From the NCBI RefSeq assembly GCF_016903815.1, contig NZ_CP069973.1: a stretch of DNA of 64,000 bases, one strand, 5' to 3'. The position numbers were made by a program, and so were the translations under genes. This DNA comes from Escherichia coli (lineage in GTDB: Bacteria; Pseudomonadota; Gammaproteobacteria; Enterobacterales; Enterobacteriaceae). The notes under the pieces are model-generated. The model did not search any database. It was not told where the DNA came from and worked only from the letters and a program-made list of their open reading frames with translations. This document shows, one piece after another, positions 29,393 to 54,801 of this stretch. How positions within the stretch are numbered: position 1 is the first letter of the stretch; each line of letters opens with the position of its first letter.

Positions 29393-29819
29393 ATGTGTGG
29401 ACGCTTTGCCCAATCCCAAACGCGTGAAGATTACCTTGCGCTTCTCGCGGAAGATATTGAACGCGATATTCCCTACGATCCCGAACCTATTGGCAGATAC
29501 AACGTCGCGCCGGGAACCAAAGTCCTTCTGCTCAGTGAACGTGATGAACACCTTCATCTGGATCCGGTTTTCTGGGGATATGCTCCCGGATGGTGGGATA
29601 AACCGCCGCTGATTAACGCCCGCGTAGAAACTGCCGCAACCAGTCACATGTTTAAACCGCTCTGGCAACATGGTCGGGCAATCTGTTTTGCCGATGGCTG
29701 GTTTGAGTGGAAAAAAGAAGGCGACAAAAAGCAGCCTTATTTTATCTATCGTGCTGATGGACAAGCTGTTTTTATAGCCGCGATAGGTAGCACACCGTTT
29801 GAGCGTGGTGACGAAGCCG
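29393..29819 (+). pseudogene. yedK: yedK (SRAP / abasic-site-processing protein) truncated after about codon 142
   Basis: ORF 29393-29890 matches YedK MCGRFAQSQTREDYLALLAEDIERDIPYDPEPIGRYNVAPGTK...IGSTPFERGDEA, then diverges into an unrelated 23-codon tail at the IS-remnant junction; full-length YedK is about 222 aa as I recall. Confidence 0.8.
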
Positions 29820-30101
29820 GAAGAAGTTTTTGTAAGCCCGCTCAGGGTCTTTCAGTGACTGTTGCAATGGCTGTGAGGGCGAATCTTTAAGCCATTGCGT
29901 TTCAGTGGCATTTTTCCACTCAACCAACCAGGAAGCCATTTTCCCGTAAGGGATGTATTTATTACCGGCCTCATGATTCTCATTCTGAAGCGCCAGAGCA
30001 CGATTGAAAACGAAACGACATGCGCCTGCGAAGCGCCTCATTTCACGCTCCTGTTGACCACCTGGTCTTAACCGGAATTTGAATGCCTGTAGTCGTTTCA
30101 T
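29820..30101 (-). pseudogene. tnpB: tnpB N-terminal fragment (IS605 OrfB / TnpB-family)
   Basis: Only about 95 N-terminal residues are recognisable; RuvC-like and zinc-finger regions are absent. Confidence 0.7.
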
Positions 30102-30123
30102 GGGCCAAATCATACTTTGGCCT

Positions 30124-30481
30124 ATGAAAAAAGAAACCGATATCCGACGCGGAAGGCATTGTGTTTTCCTGAAGCATGTTCACCTAGTCTTCGTTACTAA
30201 ATACCGACGTCAGATTTTTGACCATGACGCGACAGAAAAACTACGCACTTACTTTTCAAATGTATGTGCTGATTTTGAAGCTGAACGGGTTGAAATGGAT
30301 GGCGGACCAGATCACGTCCATTTGTTAATTAACTATCCTCCCAAACTGGCGATATCCAGTCTGGTAAACAGCCTCAAAGGCGTATCGAGTAGGTTACTGC
30401 GACGAGATCGACCAGATATTGCAGTCAGGTATTACGACAAAGGCGTTTTGTGGAGTCCTGGCTATTTTGTCAGTAGCTGCA
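30124..30481 (+). pseudogene. tnpA: tnpA (IS200-type Y1 transposase), probably C-terminally truncated
   Basis: HUH motif HVHLL and a tyrosine in GYF are present; the C-terminal tail after VSSC is unrelated to the family; truncation is inferred from recalled family sequences. Confidence 0.6.
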
Positions 30482-30804
30482 TCTTAACGTATCAACTAGA
30501 TTTAATAACAACGATATCCGTACCTAACCGGATATCTAATGTCATAAGCATCCCTTTAATTATCCCCTCAACCTCTTGTAACTTTCCCACTCTTGAGCTC
30601 CACATAGTCCAAACGCCGGATGCAAAAAAATCACACGTGCATTTCTGAAATTGTGATGGAGGAAGATAGTATCAATTATATGTGCTTAGAAACGTCCCCG
30701 ATTAGCGCAGAAGTCACCGGATTGTTCAGACTCAAATAGGTTGAGTATGCCGTATTTATTTTCCAAAATAAAAATCGATGCTGTTGCTCCTTCATAAAAT
30801 ACTT

Positions 30805-31602
30805 TTACTCTCTGGACGCTTTTCTTAGCTCTCTTGGTGTTATCTTAAAACGATTATGGAACCTTTCAGTAAAACGAGAAGGACACTTGTAACCATTTTC
30901 CCTGGCAATCTCGCTGATGGGTTTTACTGTCGTTTGTATAGCAGACAACGCATTATTTAACCTCACGTCGTCCAATATACTTTGAAAACTTACTCCCTCG
31001 CTTGCCAGACGGCGATGCAATGTGGAAACAGAAATGTAGAGATATCTCGCTACCTTGTTTGCTGTCCATTTTGTTCCAGGTTCGGATAGCATTAGGTTAT
31101 AACAACGACTTATTAATGATTGTTTACTATCTGATAAAAGTAAACAATTAACATGATGTGCTCCTAATGAAAGTAGAACGCCCATTGCTAAGTGTTCCTG
31201 AATTTGCGTTGAGAAGCCTCGGGAAATAGATGTTTTTAGTTGCTCCCAACAATATATTAACTCGGGGTTCTGAGGTAAGCAGAAACCTGTCGTGTTACGA
31301 ATTTGATCAGTTATCGCATAAAATTTTTGAAACTTTTCAATTAGATCAATGGGATAATAAAGCATTTCTGCAAGATAAAGACCTGCTTCTGGATAATTCG
31401 CAATATAAAATTCATATCCACAGGGAAATAATATTATCTGATTATTATCAACAGTTAGACTATGCGTCTCCCAATTGATAACTTTTTTTCCCTGACGGAT
31501 ACGACATAAAGCTGGCATAAGAGGCTTAACCCTGTGAATCTCATGATGTTTATGCATCCGTATTTCTTCAATCTTTAGGTTAGTCTTATCTTTTGCCAGC
31601 AT
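30805..31602 (-). CDS. ybcM: AraC-family transcriptional regulator (YbcM-like)
   Basis: ORF 265 aa with a C-terminal AraC-type HTH ([40 protein letters not shown]); resembles the YbcM of the K-12 DLP12 prophage as I recall it. Confidence 0.75.
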
Positions 31603-31611
31603 ACTCTTACC

Positions 31612-32163
31612 CTACTTTATCTCATAAACTGGTGTTATCTCAGCGGTTGCAATTTTATTGGCATTAAGCATATAACCAACTAACGCTCCGCTGGAATTAG
31701 AATCCACAGGAATTTTATCAGTTTTTAGAGCCCATACTTTAAACTGGTAATGATGGGGTTTATCTCCTTTGGGAGGACATGCTCCACCAAATCCTGCATA
31801 ACCAAAATCATTTCGGCCTTGAACAGCACCAGTCGGAAGTTTTGTACCATCACGTCTTCCTGCATCAGCGGGCAAATATGTTACAGTTGCTGGAATATTA
31901 GCAACAGTCCAGTGCCACCATCCACTGCCTGTAGGAGCATCTGGATCATACACAGTTACGGCAAAGCTTTTGGTGCCTTCAGGAGCACCAGACCAGGTTA
32001 ATGAGGGCGATGTATTACCACCTTCACACCCAAATCCAGAAAATACATGAGACGTTGTAAGTTGCTCTCCTGTTTTTATTTCATTACTAGTGACCTGAAA
32101 TGCTGCGGCCTGCGCAGAAAATGTTATGAATGCCAATACACTTGAAACGATAAGTTTTTTCAT
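31612..32163 (-). CDS. ybcL: PEBP/UPF0098-family periplasmic protein (YbcL-like)
   Basis: ORF 183 aa with signal peptide MKKLIVSSVLAFITFSAQA and PEBP motifs (DPDAP, GYAGFGGACPPKGDKPHHYQF). Confidence 0.8.
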   Translation of the reverse strand: MKKLIVSSVLAFITFSAQAAAFQVTSNEIKTGEQLTTSHVFSGFGCEGGNTSPSLTWSGAPEGTKSFAVTVYDPDAPTGSGWWHWTVANIPATVTYLPADAGRRDGTKLPTGAVQGRNDFGYAGFGGACPPKGDKPHHYQFKVWALKTDKIPVDSNSSGALVGYMLNANKIATAEITPVYEIK

Positions 32164-32331
32164 AAAAACCTCATTGTTGTGACCTATCGTTATTTTATTT
32201 GATGTGCCTTGATCTCATTATGCATAAAGGCGCAATGATCGCGCAAATGCAATCATAATTATAAAGGTGCCCCGAACATTAGCCATAATATGCACAAATC
32301 AGATTCCTGTTATCTCAAGGATAATTATTTT

Positions 32332-32664
32332 TTAATGCGGTGCACTTCGTGACAACAAGTTAATGACTAACACACCGGCACAAATCAACATCATGCCTAT
32401 GATAGCTGGCAGGTCCAGTCGTTGACCAAAAAATCCCCAGGAAAGCAAACTAATCAGAACGATACCGACGCCTGACCAGATAGCATAAGCAATCCCTGTA
32501 GGTATATAAGCCAGCGTCTGAGCTAATAACCAGAATGATGCACAATAGCAAATAATTGTGCCAACAGAGGGCCATAACCGTGTAAACCCCTCTGAAAACT
32601 TCATTAAGGTTGTACCAATGACCTCTGCAAGTATTGCGCCACCAAGATAAATATAAGGGTTCAT
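32332..32664 (-). CDS. emrE: Small multidrug resistance (SMR) efflux protein EmrE
   Basis: ORF 32332-32844(-); protein from MNPYIYLGGAILAEVIGTTLMKFSEGFTRLWPSVG is 110 aa and near-identical to EmrE, including the conserved Glu14. Confidence 0.88.
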   Translation of the reverse strand: MNPYIYLGGAILAEVIGTTLMKFSEGFTRLWPSVGTIICYCASFWLLAQTLAYIPTGIAYAIWSGVGIVLISLLSWGFFGQRLDLPAIIGMMLICAGVLVINLLSRSAPH

Positions 32665-45522: not shown

Positions 45523-45534
45523 ATGCACAATAAA

Positions 45535-45622
45535 AAAATCCCGACCCTGAGGGGGTCGGGATGAAACTTGCTTAAGCAAGAAGCACTTAAAAAATTCGTT
45601 ACACCAGGAAATCTGATGTGTT
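45535..45622 (-). ncRNA. dsrA: Small regulatory RNA DsrA (Hfq-dependent; activates rpoS translation, represses hns)
   Basis: Reverse complement reads AACACATCAGATTTCCTGGTGTAACGAATTTTTTAAGTGCTTCTTGCTTAAGCAAGTTTCATCCCGACCCCCTCAGGGTCGGGATTT, including the terminator hairpin. Confidence 0.92.
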
Positions 45623-49914: not shown

Positions 49915-50835
49915 ATGCGTTTCCGCCAGTTGTTACCGCTTTTTGGCGCGCTGTTTGCGTTGTATATCATTTGGGGCTCAACCTATTTTGTCATTCGGAT
50001 TGGCGTGGAAAGCTGGCCTCCGTTAATGATGGCGGGCGTTCGATTCCTGGCAGCCGGTATTTTATTGCTGGCATTTTTGCTACTGCGCGGACACAAACTT
50101 CCCCCGCTACGTCCGCTGCTCAATGCCGCGCTGATTGGCCTGTTATTGCTGGCTGTCGGTAATGGCATGGTGACGGTTGCCGAACATCAAAATGTTCCTT
50201 CCGGCATCGCCGCCGTTGTGGTTGCAACCGTGCCCCTCTTTACCCTGTGCTTCAGCCGCCTGTTTGGCATTAAAACGCGCAAACTGGAATGGGTGGGTAT
50301 CGCCATTGGGCTTGCCGGAATCATCATGCTCAATAGCGGTGGAAATTTAAGCGGCAATCCGTGGGGCGCGATTCTGATTTTAATCGGCTCGATTAGCTGG
50401 GCGTTTGGCTCGGTTTATGGCTCGCGCATTACCTTACCTGTAGGGATGATGGCGGGTGCGATTGAGATGCTGGCGGCTGGCGTGGTGTTAATGATTGCGT
50501 CGATGATTGCGGGTGAAAAACTGACGGCGCTCCCTTCCCTTTCAGGCTTCCTTGCGGTCGGCTATCTGGCGCTGTTTGGTTCGATTATCGCCATTAACGC
50601 TTATATGTATTTAATCCGCAACGTCAGTCCGGCTCTCGCCACCAGCTACGCCTACGTTAACCCAGTGGTCGCGGTCTTGCTGGGTACGGGGCTGGGTGGC
50701 GAAACGCTGTCGAAGATTGAATGGCTGGCGCTCGGCGTAATTGTTTTCGCGGTGGTACTGGTCACGTTGGGAAAATATCTCTTCCCGGCCAAACCCGTTG
50801 TCGCGCCAGTTATTCCGGATGCATCAAGCGAGTAA
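49915..50835 (+). CDS. yedA: EamA/DMT-family transporter YedA
   Basis: ORF 306 aa MRFRQLLPLFGALFALYIIWGSTYFVIRIG. Confidence 0.9.
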   Translation: MRFRQLLPLFGALFALYIIWGSTYFVIRIGVESWPPLMMAGVRFLAAGILLLAFLLLRGHKLPPLRPLLNAALIGLLLLAVGNGMVTVAEHQNVPSGIAAVVVATVPLFTLCFSRLFGIKTRKLEWVGIAIGLAGIIMLNSGGNLSGNPWGAILILIGSISWAFGSVYGSRITLPVGMMAGAIEMLAAGVVLMIASMIAGEKLTALPSLSGFLAVGYLALFGSIIAINAYMYLIRNVSPALATSYAYVNPVVAVLLGTGLGGETLSKIEWLALGVIVFAVVLVTLGKYLFPAKPVVAPVIPDASSE

Positions 50836-51294
50836 ATGAATCCCCTGCGTGTCGATCTGCGCGCTGGCACCTTCGCCGCAGATCCACTCTTCCAGACGCT
50901 CGGTAAGCGCCGCATCCGTCAGCTTCTCGCGCCCGCGTAACGCACATTCCCAGACAATCAATACGCGCCAACCGAGTTCCTGCAAATGGCTGATATCACG
51001 ACGATCGCGCTCGACATTTTTACCTATCTTCTCCAGCCAAAAATCTGTTCGCGTGGCGGGGACTTTAAACAGGTAGCAATGGTGATGGTGCCAGAAGCAA
51101 CCGTGGGCAAATATCACACAGCGAAATTCATCAAGGACAAAATCCGGGCGTCCGGGCAGACTGGCGTCCTGAACGCGAAACGCCAGGCCCTGCCCAGTTA
51201 ACAAACTGGCGAGGCGCTTCTCAATCGCCGTATCACGCGTGGCAATCGCGCGCATATTTTTGCTGCGGGTGGCCTTATCGTGAACGTCGACCAT
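50824..51294 (-). CDS. vsr: Very-short-patch repair endonuclease Vsr
   Basis: ORF 50824-51456(-); Vsr-like region begins M(V)[30 protein letters not shown]; 5' end overlaps the 3' end of dcm. Confidence 0.9.
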
Positions 51295-52693
51295 GTTGTG
51301 CCTCTTGCTGACGCAACGCCACCGCCTGTTTGATTTTTGGCTCAAGCAGTTTTGCCACCGCGGCAAAGACCGGCACGACCACCGAGTTACCGAACTGGCG
51401 ATAAGCCTGAGTGTCCGAAACCGGAATGCGGAATTTCGCTTCTCCCGGCGCTTCAAAACCCATTAAGCGCGCACATTCCCGAGGCGTTAACCGACGTGGG
51501 CGATGTTGCTGATTCAGCGGATCGTCAAAGTCTTTCTCACCCGTTGCCATATCCCAGCCGCGATCGATTAAAATTTCCGCGCCATCTTTGTAATAACGCG
51601 CAGACAGCGTACGCGTGACGCTTTGCGGATTGTTCGGATAAACCATTCCATAACCGAAGCCGTTACCGCGCGCCTGATGTTTTTTCGCATATCGATAGAG
51701 GTACTTCCACAGTACCGGCGTCAGGATATATTTCGCCTCGACCATCGGGTCCAGCAGCTGCGCCAGCGTCACTCGCTGTGCAGGGAAACATTTGCTGATA
51801 TCACGCAGAGTAAAATCGGCTTTCAGATTCAGATCGCGACGAAAACCCACCAGCACGATGCGTTCACGGTGCTGCGGCAGAAAATGTTTGCCGTCGATGA
51901 TTTTCGGATCGTCCGGCCCGTTATCTTCTGCATCAGCCACGTCATAGCCCAGTTCGTCCAGCGTCTGCATGATGATGCGGAACGTTTTACCCTGGTCGTG
52001 ACTTTTCAGGTTTTTGACGTTTTCGAGCACAAACATCGCCGGACGACGCGCGTCGATAATGCGCACCACATCAAAGAACAGCGTGCCCTGGGTATCGCAG
52101 GCAAAACCGTGCGCCCGCCCGAGCGAGTTCTTTTTCGATACGCCAGCCAGCGAAAATGGCTGACAAGGGAAACCGGCCAGTAAAACATCGTGTTCAGGAA
52201 TGTGTTGACGAATATGTTCCGCCGCCGCCTCATCACTCACGCCTTCTTGATGGCTGAGGGTGATGTCGCGGATATCCTCATTAAAATGATGCGTCGCCGG
52301 GTCGCAATAATGGTTGGCTTTATAAGTGCGTACCGCATGTTTGTTCCATTCGCTGGTAAACACGCACTGTCCACCAATCGATTCAAAACCGCGACGGATG
52401 CCGCCAATTCCGGCAAATAGATCGATAAAGCGAAACGCATAATGCGGATGATGTGCCGGTGGTTTGGGTAACAACGTTTGCAGATGGGCGAACTCTTTCT
52501 CACTTAAACGGTGCCATGCCGAGTCATTCGCCAGCGCACGTTTTAAAATTGCCGCGCTCCAGTGATTCTCACCCACACCATTAAGCTGCGCCACCAGCGT
52601 TTTAACATCATAAATTTGCAGCAGTTTCTCCAGCATTGCCTGTGCGGCATTCCCGGTGCTGTATGAATCGGTTACTGATATATTTTCCTGCAT
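51275..52693 (-). CDS. dcm: DNA-cytosine C5 methyltransferase Dcm (CCWGG)
   Basis: ORF 472 aa [33 protein letters not shown] with FxGxGG (DLFAGIGG), PCQ and ENV motifs. Confidence 0.95.
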
Positions 52694-52759
52694 AGATTTA
52701 ACCGGCCATCTGAGATGGCCGACAGGTTAACATAATTACTGCCGTTTAGGGCCACGCGC

Positions 52760-53197
52760 TCAGCCAGCAGGTGAAAACGCATCTATCACCTTGTGATCGA
52801 TACCTTCATTCTCCCCCGCCAGTTCGGCACCGAGCTTCGCCATAAACTCGACTAAAAATTGCGCGTTGTGCTGTGCCAGCTGCTTGCCTCTTGCGGTTTG
52901 CATGGTTTGCGGTAATTTCAGTAACTTTGTCTGGAAATGATCCAGCGCGTAGCGTTTATCATCAAGCGGGCGATGCTGTGCGAACGGATCTTCGCCATCA
53001 AACAGCGCCAAGCCCAATGCCCCTGAAACGGCAAATACGCGCGCCAGGCCAATCGCCCCCAGGGCTTCCAGCCGATCCGCATCCTGGACGATTTTAGCTT
53101 CCGTTGTTAAGGGGGCGATTTGCGCGCTGAAACTGTGAGCGGCAATGGCATGACAAACGGCCTCAATTTTCTCCGCCGGAAATTGCACGAACTCTTC
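52760..53197 (-). pseudogene. yedJ: yedJ (HD-domain phosphohydrolase) lacking its 5' end, which is replaced by IS1
   Basis: Reading frame (E)[25 protein letters not shown]... runs up to the IS1 end at 53198; roughly 85 N-terminal codons are absent (length from memory). Confidence 0.8.
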
Positions 53198-53252
53198 GGT
53201 AATGCTGCCAACTTACTGATTTAGTGTATGATGGTGATTTTAAGGTGCTTGC

Positions 53253-53528
53253 GTGGCTTCCATTTCCATCAGATGTCCTTCCTGCTCCGCTACTGAAGGC
53301 GTGGTGCGTAACGGCAAAAGCACTGCCGGACATCAGCGCTATCTCTGCTCTCATTGCCGTAAAACATGGCAACTACAGTTCACTTACACCGCCTCTCAGC
53401 CCGGTAAGCACCAGAAAATCATTGATATGGCCATGAATGGCGTCGGATGTCACGCCAGTGCACGCATTATGGGCGTTGGCCTCAACACGGTTTTACGTCA
53501 CTTAAAAAACTCAGGCCGCAGTCGGTAA
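53253..53528 (+). CDS. insA: IS1 InsA
   Basis: ORF 91 aa [66 protein letters not shown]. Confidence 0.95.
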
Positions 53529-53950
53529 CCTCGCGCATACAACCGGGCAGTGATGTGATTGTCTGCGCTGAAATGGACGAACAGTGGGGCTACGTCGGTG
53601 CTAAATCACGTCAGCGCTGGCTGTTTTACGCGTATGACAGGATACGGAGGACGGTTGTGGCGCACGTCTTCGGTGAACGCACTCTGGCCACACTGGAGCG
53701 TCTTCTGAGCCTGCTGTCGGCCTTTGAGGTCGTGGTATGGATGACGGATGGCTGGCCGCTGTATGAATCACGCCTGAAGGGAAAGCTGCACGTTATCAGC
53801 AAGCGTTACACTCAGCGCATTGAGCGACATAATCTGAATCTGAGACAACATCTGGCAAGGCTGGGACGGAAGTCACTGTCGTTCTCAAAATCGGTGGAGC
53901 TGCATGACAAGGTCATCGGGCATTATCTGAACATAAAACACTATCAGTAA
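53447..53950 (+). CDS. insB: IS1 InsB (expressed as InsAB' fusion by -1 frameshift)
   Basis: ORF 167 aa ...[110 protein letters not shown]. Confidence 0.93.
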
Positions 53951-53965
53951 GTTGGAGTCATTACC

Positions 53966-54694
53966 CCAAAACCGTATCGCGGTAAACATAAAATTCTGGT
54001 GATCGCCGCGGACGAACGTTATTTGCCGACCGATAACGGAAAACTGTTCTCGACCGGTAACCATCCGATTGAAACGTTGCTGCCGTTGTATCATCTCCAT
54101 GCTGCAGGTTTCGAATTCGAAGTGGCGACCATTTCCGGTCTGATGACCAAGTTTGAATACTGGGCTATGCCGCACAAAGATGAAAAAGTAATGCCATTCT
54201 TTGAGCAGCATAAATCGTTGTTCCGCAATCCGAAAAAACTCGCGGATGTTGTCGTCAGCCTCAACGCAGACAGCGAATATGCAGCAATCTTTGTTCCTGG
54301 TGGTCATGGCGCACTTATTAGTTTACCAGAAAGCCAGGACGTGGCTGCTGCTTTGCAGTGGGCAATCAAAAATGACCGTTTTGTTATCTCCCTTTGCCAC
54401 GGCCCGGCGGCTTTTCTGGCGCTTCGCCACGGCGATAACCCACTGAATGGTTATTCCATTTGCGCATTCCCAGACGCCGCAGACAAACAAACGCCAGAGA
54501 TAGGCTATATGCCGGGTCATCTCACCTGGTACTTCGGCGAAGAGCTGAAGAAAATGGGCATGAACATTATTAATGACGACATCACCGGGCGAGTACATAA
54601 GGACCGTAAAGTTCTCACCGGCGACAGTCCTTTCGCAGCGAATGCGTTGGGTAAACTGGCGGCGCAGGAAATGCTGGCAGCTTATGCGGGTTAA
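53966..54694 (+). pseudogene. hchA: hchA (Hsp31 glyoxalase/chaperone) lacking its first ~41 codons and native promoter
   Basis: Frame resumes at PKPYRGKHKILVIAADERYLPTDNGKLFSTGNHPIE... directly after the IS1 right end; the remainder is colinear with HchA to the stop. Confidence 0.85.
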
Positions 54695-54730
54695 TCCCTG
54701 TTACGTATGAATGTAAGCGCATAATCAATC

Positions 54731-54768
54731 GCAGCCACGTTAATACTCACGACGTGGCTGCGTTTTTT
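54731..54768 (+). terminator. Rho-independent terminator after hchA
   Basis: gcagccacgt...acgtggctgc hairpin followed by tttttt. Confidence 0.65.
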
Positions 54769-54801
54769 CATGGTTGATTTATGGCGTACTGAAGCCCTAT
54801 G

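Follow-up and report, generated by a model that had tools for sequence, protein, structure and literature searches.

The yedJ–hchA region of this E. coli chromosome carries an intact IS1 element in place of roughly 3.1 kb of K-12 sequence, and this deletion is an allele common to many genomes, not one private to the isolate. On balance, we favor a history in which a single ancestral, IS1-associated deletion would have formed by adjacent (intramolecular) transposition from an insertion in yedJ, and would then have spread by inheritance and recombination. The event itself is of an ordinary and known kind, an IS1-bounded deletion whose truncated genes hundreds of RefSeq genomes already list as pseudogenes; in literature searches, no description of the specific yedJ–IS1–hchA junction was found.

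An intact IS1 between two truncated genes

The window, by which we mean the whole 64-kb stretch of DNA that was analyzed, is a segment of the E. coli chromosome reaching from otsA as far as the beginning of the yersiniabactin island, with intact fli genes, dcm, and vsr. Alignment of window positions 50000–58000 to positions 2026000–2042000 of K-12 MG1655 (NC_000913.3) recovers two collinear blocks, the left ending at window position 53197 (K-12 2032821) and the right starting at 53966 (K-12 2035958). Both alignment ends are the bases directly outside the IS1 termini, with IS1 kept whole, and the missing K-12 interval is 2032822..2035957, or 3,136 bp. A preliminary description of this DNA, made from the sequence alone, had given the K-12 gene order as dcm, yedJ, yedR, rseX, yedS, hchA, and had proposed that the sequence between the breakpoints, including rseX and yedS, is absent here. 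K-12 does have this order, with yedR now named drpB, and the missing interval comprises the 5′ end of yedJ, drpB, rseX, yedS (a pseudogene in K-12), and the 5′ end of hchA. The corresponding interval measures roughly 3.0–3.16 kb in other intact genomes. Consistent with its absence, the window has no Rfam match to RseX; DsrA and five tRNAs were matched.

The remnant of yedJ (52760..53197, minus strand) comprises codons 87–231 and the stop codon, as defined by the K-12 alignment. It retains 438 of 696 nt and lacks the first 86 codons, close to the roughly 85 estimated in the preliminary description. In the translation of K-12 YedJ, the HD motif (..YFHDIV..) falls within the lost residues 1–86, and PGAP annotates the remnant in strain 7/2 as “HD domain-containing protein, missing N-terminus.” The remnant of hchA (53966..54694, plus strand) comprises codons 42–283 and the stop codon, as supported by the K-12 alignment, its translation, and the PGAP annotation “hchA, missing N-terminus.” The promoter, ribosome-binding site, and start codon of hchA are gone, together with exactly the first 41 codons, the number originally proposed.

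The IS1 element between these remnants spans 53198–53965 on the plus strand and, as had been suggested, is an intact copy of 768 bp. Its terminal inverted repeats, IRL (53198–53220) and IRR (53943–53965), match at 20 of 23 positions when the first 23 nt are compared with the reverse complement of the last 23. The insA frame (53253–53528, plus strand) is open and encodes an InsA of 91 aa, and an A6C motif for −1 frameshifting (AAAAAAC, plus strand) lies at 53504–53510. A simulated −1 slip at this motif yields an uninterrupted InsAB′ transposase of 232 aa, with the insB frame, also on the plus strand, ending at 53950 in a TAA stop (53948–53950). The element is 99.35% identical to the IS1F of K-12 MG1655 (5/768 mismatches, no gaps), and PGAP labels the identical sequence “IS1 family transposase, programmed frameshift.” The window element is a bona fide IS1 of the IS1F-type isoform, and no second IS1 end is found within the 64-kb window.

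The 9 bp immediately left of IS1 (53189..53197), GAACTCTTC, have no partner at the right side, where the corresponding 9 bp are CCAAAACCG; the two agree at 1 of 9 positions. Direct repeats of 6–14 bp are likewise absent around the IS1 ends, in agreement with the earlier observation that a 9-bp target-site duplication (TSD) is lacking. A missing TSD is expected if a rearrangement came after insertion, and does not count against the identification of the element as IS1. Had yedJ been the first insertion site, GAACTCTTC would be the surviving copy of the TSD.

Strain 7/2 (NZ_CP023820.1) is identical to the window over 14.1 kb, and the other 47.7 kb compared differ by 1 mismatch, 1 gap, and the absence of an IS200C copy. 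More broadly, many RefSeq genomes carry the 2.1-kb locus at 100% identity, with PGAP annotations of a truncated HD protein, an IS1 transposase, and a truncated hchA in succession; recurrence of the same 2.1 kb at 100% identity across many genomes indicates that the pattern is not due to chance.

Distribution of the junctions and probable recombination at their flanks

We counted the junctions by 80-mers in a survey set of 5,426 complete E. coli RefSeq genomes. The left junction, between yedJ and IS1, occurs in 450 genomes (8.3%), always on the chromosome and in single copy. The primary right junction, between IS1 and codon 42 of hchA, occurs in 430 of the surveyed genomes and an extended right junction, discussed below, in 19, such that the left-junction total is made up of 430, 19, and a single genome with neither right junction. 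Coverage-based counts with longer queries gave 447 (2.1 kb) and 450 and 443 (300 bp); the 80-mer counts were taken as definitive, and the excess in the longer-query counts at the right side may come from the joining of fragments that belong to unrelated IS1 copies close to hchA. At least one mismatch within the 80-mer was found for 15 of the 450 left junctions and for seven or eight right junctions, and variants near the border are therefore a small minority. The carriers include the O26:H11 strains FWSEC0001 and H19, large (>5.4 Mb) human and bovine isolates, and many other human, animal, and environmental isolates; several carrier strains may be ST410.

The unique segment from the yedJ 5′ end through drpB to rseX is present in 4,915 of the surveyed genomes and absent in 511. 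With full-length genes in K-12 and in most E. coli, the possibility raised at the outset, that yedJ and hchA are naturally this short, is refuted. The preliminary description had also asked whether rseX exists elsewhere in the genome. A relocation query, in which 200 bp of retained yedJ were fused to the K-12 sequence that is lost here, matched the genomes in the bottom five rows of the ranking (MEI008, 98205, 00_3230, GPEC673, and 14EC047) in a single place and over the 200 bp only; GPEC673 and 14EC047 were confirmed as junction carriers. Across all records, this query produced only 9 extra match places. In the confirmed carriers 02E060 and PEC131, the deleted interval was matched only through the ompC paralogue. 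The sampled junction carriers hold no drpB–rseX DNA at other sites, and rseX, drpB, and yedS are therefore wholly missing there.

A single origin of the allele is supported by comparisons of sequence among carriers, in that the junctions are identical, the IS1 copies nearly so, and most flanks alike. Seven of the IS1 copies read in carriers differ by 1–3 SNPs, and one, in 74-2, has a 12-SNP patch, made up of true base calls yet possibly introduced by polishing, that is not relied upon here. A candidate case of IS1 gene conversion in H1 was rejected: the apparent 9% divergence is made up of 68 N characters in the assembly, and 2 differences are real. In flanks of ~3 kb on each side of IS1, six of seven sampled carriers match the window (W-type) on both sides next to IS1; the seventh, 19451123, is W-type at the right only. 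Its left flank carries a foreign tract, from 51268 to 53165, that ends within 33 bp of IS1.

The genome 14EC047 departs further. It has the same two junctions, with flanks that differ from the window by ~2% across all 64 kb and the nearest differences lying 11 bp from IS1 on the left and 21 bp on the right. A single origin together with such divergent flanks requires extra recombination events. The SNPs at 53011, 53036, and 53165 are common to 14EC047 and 19451123. Donor DNA from a non-carrier would probably overwrite a flank only to the end of homology, with recombination tracts piling up at the deletion border, and overwriting of this kind on both sides, up to the deletion edge, is the likeliest account of 14EC047. 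Differences between 14EC047 and the window in the hchA remnant number 9 synonymous to 2 nonsynonymous, and therefore built up while hchA was functional.

The O26:H11 genomes share a haplotype with the window from 42 kb to the window end (at least 22 kb, at ~0.1% divergence) and are 2.3% divergent from it in fliF–fliR, a pattern that marks the region as mosaic. This shared block and the divergent background of 14EC047 would be compatible with a selected spread of the deletion allele. We think it rather unlikely that the gene-loss allele, lacking RseX, DrpB, YedS, HchA, and YedJ, was moved between divergent backgrounds by recombination and kept by selection; if this were the case, the locus would represent an adaptive gene loss that travels horizontally, with recombination tracts cut back precisely to the deletion edge.

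Formation of the deletion

Evidence on mechanism comes from the extended right junction. In ETEC4085, the yedJ junction and IS1 are unchanged, and the right end of IS1 is joined at window position 54761/2 (54761..54762, with 1 bp of uncertainty), a site that is intact in the window itself. Read base by base, this endpoint lies inside the hchA terminator, and a further 795 bp, including the entire hchA remnant, is gone. In 2014C-3050, the left and extended junctions are exactly 768 bp apart. Classically, IS-promoted adjacent deletion is recognized by an IRL junction that stays constant and IRR junctions that form a series; the nested, one-ended series of 430 and 19 genomes on one left junction therefore lends direct support to the preliminary reading of the locus as an IS1 insertion followed by adjacent deletion.

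Under this reading, an IS1F-type element would have entered yedJ at the boundary of codons 86 and 87, its IRL facing the 3′ part of the gene. Its IRR would then have attacked a site in hchA, ~3.1 kb away on the same chromosome, by intramolecular transposition, such that the yedJ 5′ end, drpB, rseX, yedS, 41 hchA codons, and the right-hand copy of the TSD would have been lost and IS1 would have stayed in place. The resulting allele would have been inherited, and carried among E. coli lineages by homologous recombination. In one sub-lineage (the 19 genomes), a second deletion on the IRR side would have removed another 795 bp, as far as the hchA terminator. We infer the order of these events, the end that was active in the first step, and the involvement of transposase rather than RecA.

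A simple IS1 insertion would read IS1-IRR + GAACTCTTC + ACGGAGCAGGCG at the yedJ site and GGCGTGGACTAT + CCAAAACCG + IS1-IRL at the hchA site. A chimeric query representing the yedJ insertion (IS1-IRR, then GAACTCTTC, then downstream yedJ) found 0 of the 5,426 genomes at a coverage of at least 80%, and the corresponding query for the hchA site likewise found no such insertion among the 5,426. Seven apparent insertions at the hchA site were rejected, as they match, in two pieces, IS1A/B insertions that are distinct from this one and sit at different positions. With no genome in this set having IS1 at either breakpoint and the interval present, the order and polarity of the steps are not directly observed.

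Deletion formation by IS1 is classical, having been described for the gal region (Reif & Saedler, 1975, as cited in PMC10569738), and modern IS1-adjacent deletions at nfsB extend over 11–66 kb (PMC10569738). The classical cases resemble this locus in having an intact IS1 at the boundary, a deletion that starts from the terminal base of the element, no TSD, and a nested series with one junction in common. They differ in being laboratory or within-patient mutants, whereas the allele described here is old, natural, and widely inherited (450/5,426). In the long-term evolution experiment, every IS deletion without a TSD was traced to a pre-existing IS and an adjacent deletion, often later extended (PMC11708052). 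That small-first-then-extended pattern is comparable to the nested junctions in 430 and 19 genomes here; however, the experiment concerned the IS3 family, with intermediates observed in a time series, whereas the present element is an IS1 and no intermediate was found in the 5,426 genomes.

The closest parallel is found in E. coli B (REL606/BL21), for which a 41-kb IS1-bounded deletion from uvrY to hchA, removing the fli genes, has been published (PMC3032704). Both loci present a 5′-truncated gene, an IS1 in the same orientation, a 5′-truncated hchA, and then hprS. However, the REL606 element is of the IS1A type and 91.1% identical to the window IS1, its hchA break lies inside codon 69 rather than at 41/42, and its left breakpoint is in uvrY, with loss of the fli genes and dcm, which the window keeps. 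Judging from these differences in sequence, the E. coli B deletion is an independent event. Taken with the seven other genomes in which an IS1 lies within or close to the 5′ end of hchA, it identifies the 5′ third of hchA as a recurrent IS1 endpoint.

This recurrence bears on a possible but doubtful alternative, in which yedJ and hchA each acquired an IS1 copy independently, in matching orientation, and RecA-dependent recombination between the copies removed 3.1 kb and one copy, leaving a hybrid IS1 with flanks that do not match. Such recombination would yield the same end product, an intact IS1 with no TSD; loss of TSDs through recombination between IS copies is common (PMC11708052), and the break at codon 69 in E. 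coli B, along with the IS1A/B copies in or near the 5′ end in 7 other genomes, marks the 5′ part of hchA as a site that IS1 has used repeatedly. However, not one of the 5,426 genomes has either single insertion or both copies, and the second deletion, in 19 genomes, would need a further IS1 insertion and another recombination, so that repeated activity of a single end is the more parsimonious account.

The polarity of the event could also be reversed, with IS1 inserted first in hchA at codon 41/42 and IRL deleting leftwards into yedJ. Several independent lineages have an IS1 junction in hchA, and the arrangement in E. coli B, where the element abuts hchA with its right end and has its left junction 41 kb off in uvrY, fits an insertion fixed in hchA from which a deletion ran leftwards. 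We nevertheless regard this polarity as unlikely, since among the carriers the yedJ junction stays the same (450 genomes) and two states occur on the hchA side (430 and 19); the E. coli B event, with its different isoform (91% identity) and breakpoint, says nothing direct about this one.

A one-step origin, in which a chromosome break arising in the course of an unrelated 3.1-kb deletion took up IS1, with no staggered cleavage and hence no TSD at any stage, would account for the missing single-insertion intermediates. Ngan et al. (2024) put forward a mechanism of this kind for IS5 and IS481 (PMC11708052). Yet capture is hypothetical even in that source, where it concerns elements other than IS1, and it does not predict a later extension from the same IS end; we consider it very unlikely here.

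Independent formation of identical junctions, more than once, at IS1 insertion and deletion hot spots might seem to explain why 14EC047 has the junctions without the window's flanking SNPs, with differences as near as 11 bp and 21 bp and a 9:2 synonymous to nonsynonymous ratio in hchA, but it is extremely improbable, as simple insertions would be expected at both sites and none occurs in the 5,426 genomes, the 14EC047 IS1 is only 1/768 nt different from the window IS1, and 19451123 directly shows flank overwriting up to the deletion edge.

The hchA remnant and the lost functions

The hchA remnant is in frame with insB, and the insB TAA stop separates the two. The presumed catalytic residues, which from Hsp31 structures are E77, C185, H186, and D214, fall in the retained part of hchA. 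The excess of synonymous differences between the window and 14EC047 (9:2) could suggest a truncated hchA that is functional and under selection. This interpretation was rejected on the basis of the hchA-remnant SNPs among carriers with W-type flanks, of which 4 are nonsynonymous and 1 is synonymous. The two nonsynonymous to synonymous ratios, 4:1 among the W-type carriers and 2:9 between the window and 14EC047, differ at p = 0.036 (Fisher), with small counts, and the 9:2 pattern is explained by a 14EC047 flank that came from an intact donor allele. A scan of 52600–54900 for promoters and terminators found 3 against 2.8 expected by shuffling; a result at the shuffled expectation gives no evidence of IS1 driving the hchA remnant. 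We therefore suggest, with modest confidence and from sequence comparison, that the remnant behaves as a decaying pseudogene, in agreement with PGAP.

The functions affected by the deletion are diverse. RseX is a small RNA that represses OmpA and OmpC, YedS is a porin, HchA is a deglycase/glyoxalase, and YedJ is an HD phosphohydrolase. DrpB is a non-essential division protein (PMC7648144). The rseX gene is one of the few genes for Hfq-dependent small RNAs that vary within the species (Skippington & Ragan, 2012; PMC3318445), and it has been lost in S. dysenteriae, S. flexneri, and E. coli HS (PMC3318445). Those losses concern other lineages and were given no mechanism, whereas the loss in the window is tied to a defined IS1 junction.

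The locus provides no new mechanism. It illustrates, in natural isolates, how IS1 deletions become nested and how recombination tracts stop at the border of a deletion. The 80-bp sequences across the two junctions are well suited as PCR or k-mer markers, and the deletion serves as a lineage marker. For the biology of the species, it follows that ~8% of complete E. coli genomes, including those of O26:H11 Shiga-toxin strains, are naturally without RseX, DrpB, YedS, HchA, and YedJ, and these five missing functions are relevant wherever regulatory networks from K-12 are transferred to the carrier lineages.

Recombination blocks around the deletion allele

Comparison of haplotypes between the window (32000-64000) and O26:H11 strain FWSEC0001 revealed a sharp boundary near 42 kb. 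The fliF-fliR segment (32-42 kb) diverges by ~2.3%, whereas the 42-64 kb segment containing the IS1 locus diverges by ~0.1%; this switch indicates a large recombination block surrounding the deletion allele. On a smaller scale, another carrier of the yedJ-IS1 junction (AMSCJX02) has 48 densely packed SNPs at the equivalent of 50478-51196, limited to the 3' end of yedA and vsr, while the rest of the carrier is window-like. The patch represents a short stretch imported into the vsr/dcm region by recombination.

Variation within the carrier IS1

Strain 74-2 is likewise window-like apart from 12 SNPs, all of them real bases, grouped in a 109-bp stretch inside its IS1 (window equivalent 53354-53462). 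The cluster may reflect partial gene conversion from another IS1 isoform, or it may be an assembly-polishing artefact. The IS1 of strain H1 (RefSeq assembly, NZ_CP010160.1) contains 68 N characters (window equivalent 53201-53947), placed at sites that are variable among IS1 isoforms; its apparent divergence of 9% is spurious, and arises when these Ns are scored as mismatches.

Other mobile-element sites in the window

Between yedF and fliE (about 29393-32664), yedK, encoding an SOS-response-associated peptidase, is 3'-truncated. After it come a partial helix-turn-helix gene, an IS200/IS605 tnpA, and ybcM-ybcL-emrE, genes that in K-12 belong to the DLP12 prophage. In O26:H11 and in 14EC047, a carrier with flanks ~2% divergent from the window, yedK is instead intact at this site. 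The closest genome, strain 7/2, carries IS200C at about 45532-45541, the 3' end of the sRNA gene dsrA (45536-45622, minus strand), whereas the window lacks the insertion; in the alignment of the two, the same 10 bases are present on each side of the element. Toward the end of the window, tRNA-Asn (61784-61856) precedes an integrase-like ORF (62010-62936), which carries a frameshift annotation in O26:H11; ybtS (63130-63993, minus strand) comes next. The segment 61784-64000 is the beginning of the asnT-integrated yersiniabactin high-pathogenicity island.

The hchA 5' region as an IS1 endpoint

In E. coli B REL606, the counterpart (NC_012967.1, 32697-34686) of window 53198-54694 reads 5'-truncated uvrY, IS1, 5'-truncated hchA. 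This IS1A-bounded deletion shares the architecture of the window allele but is an independent event, and its hchA breakpoint falls within codon 69. In seven further genomes IS1A/B lies within or close to the 5' end of hchA, and the 5' third of the gene thus looks to be a recurrent endpoint for IS1.
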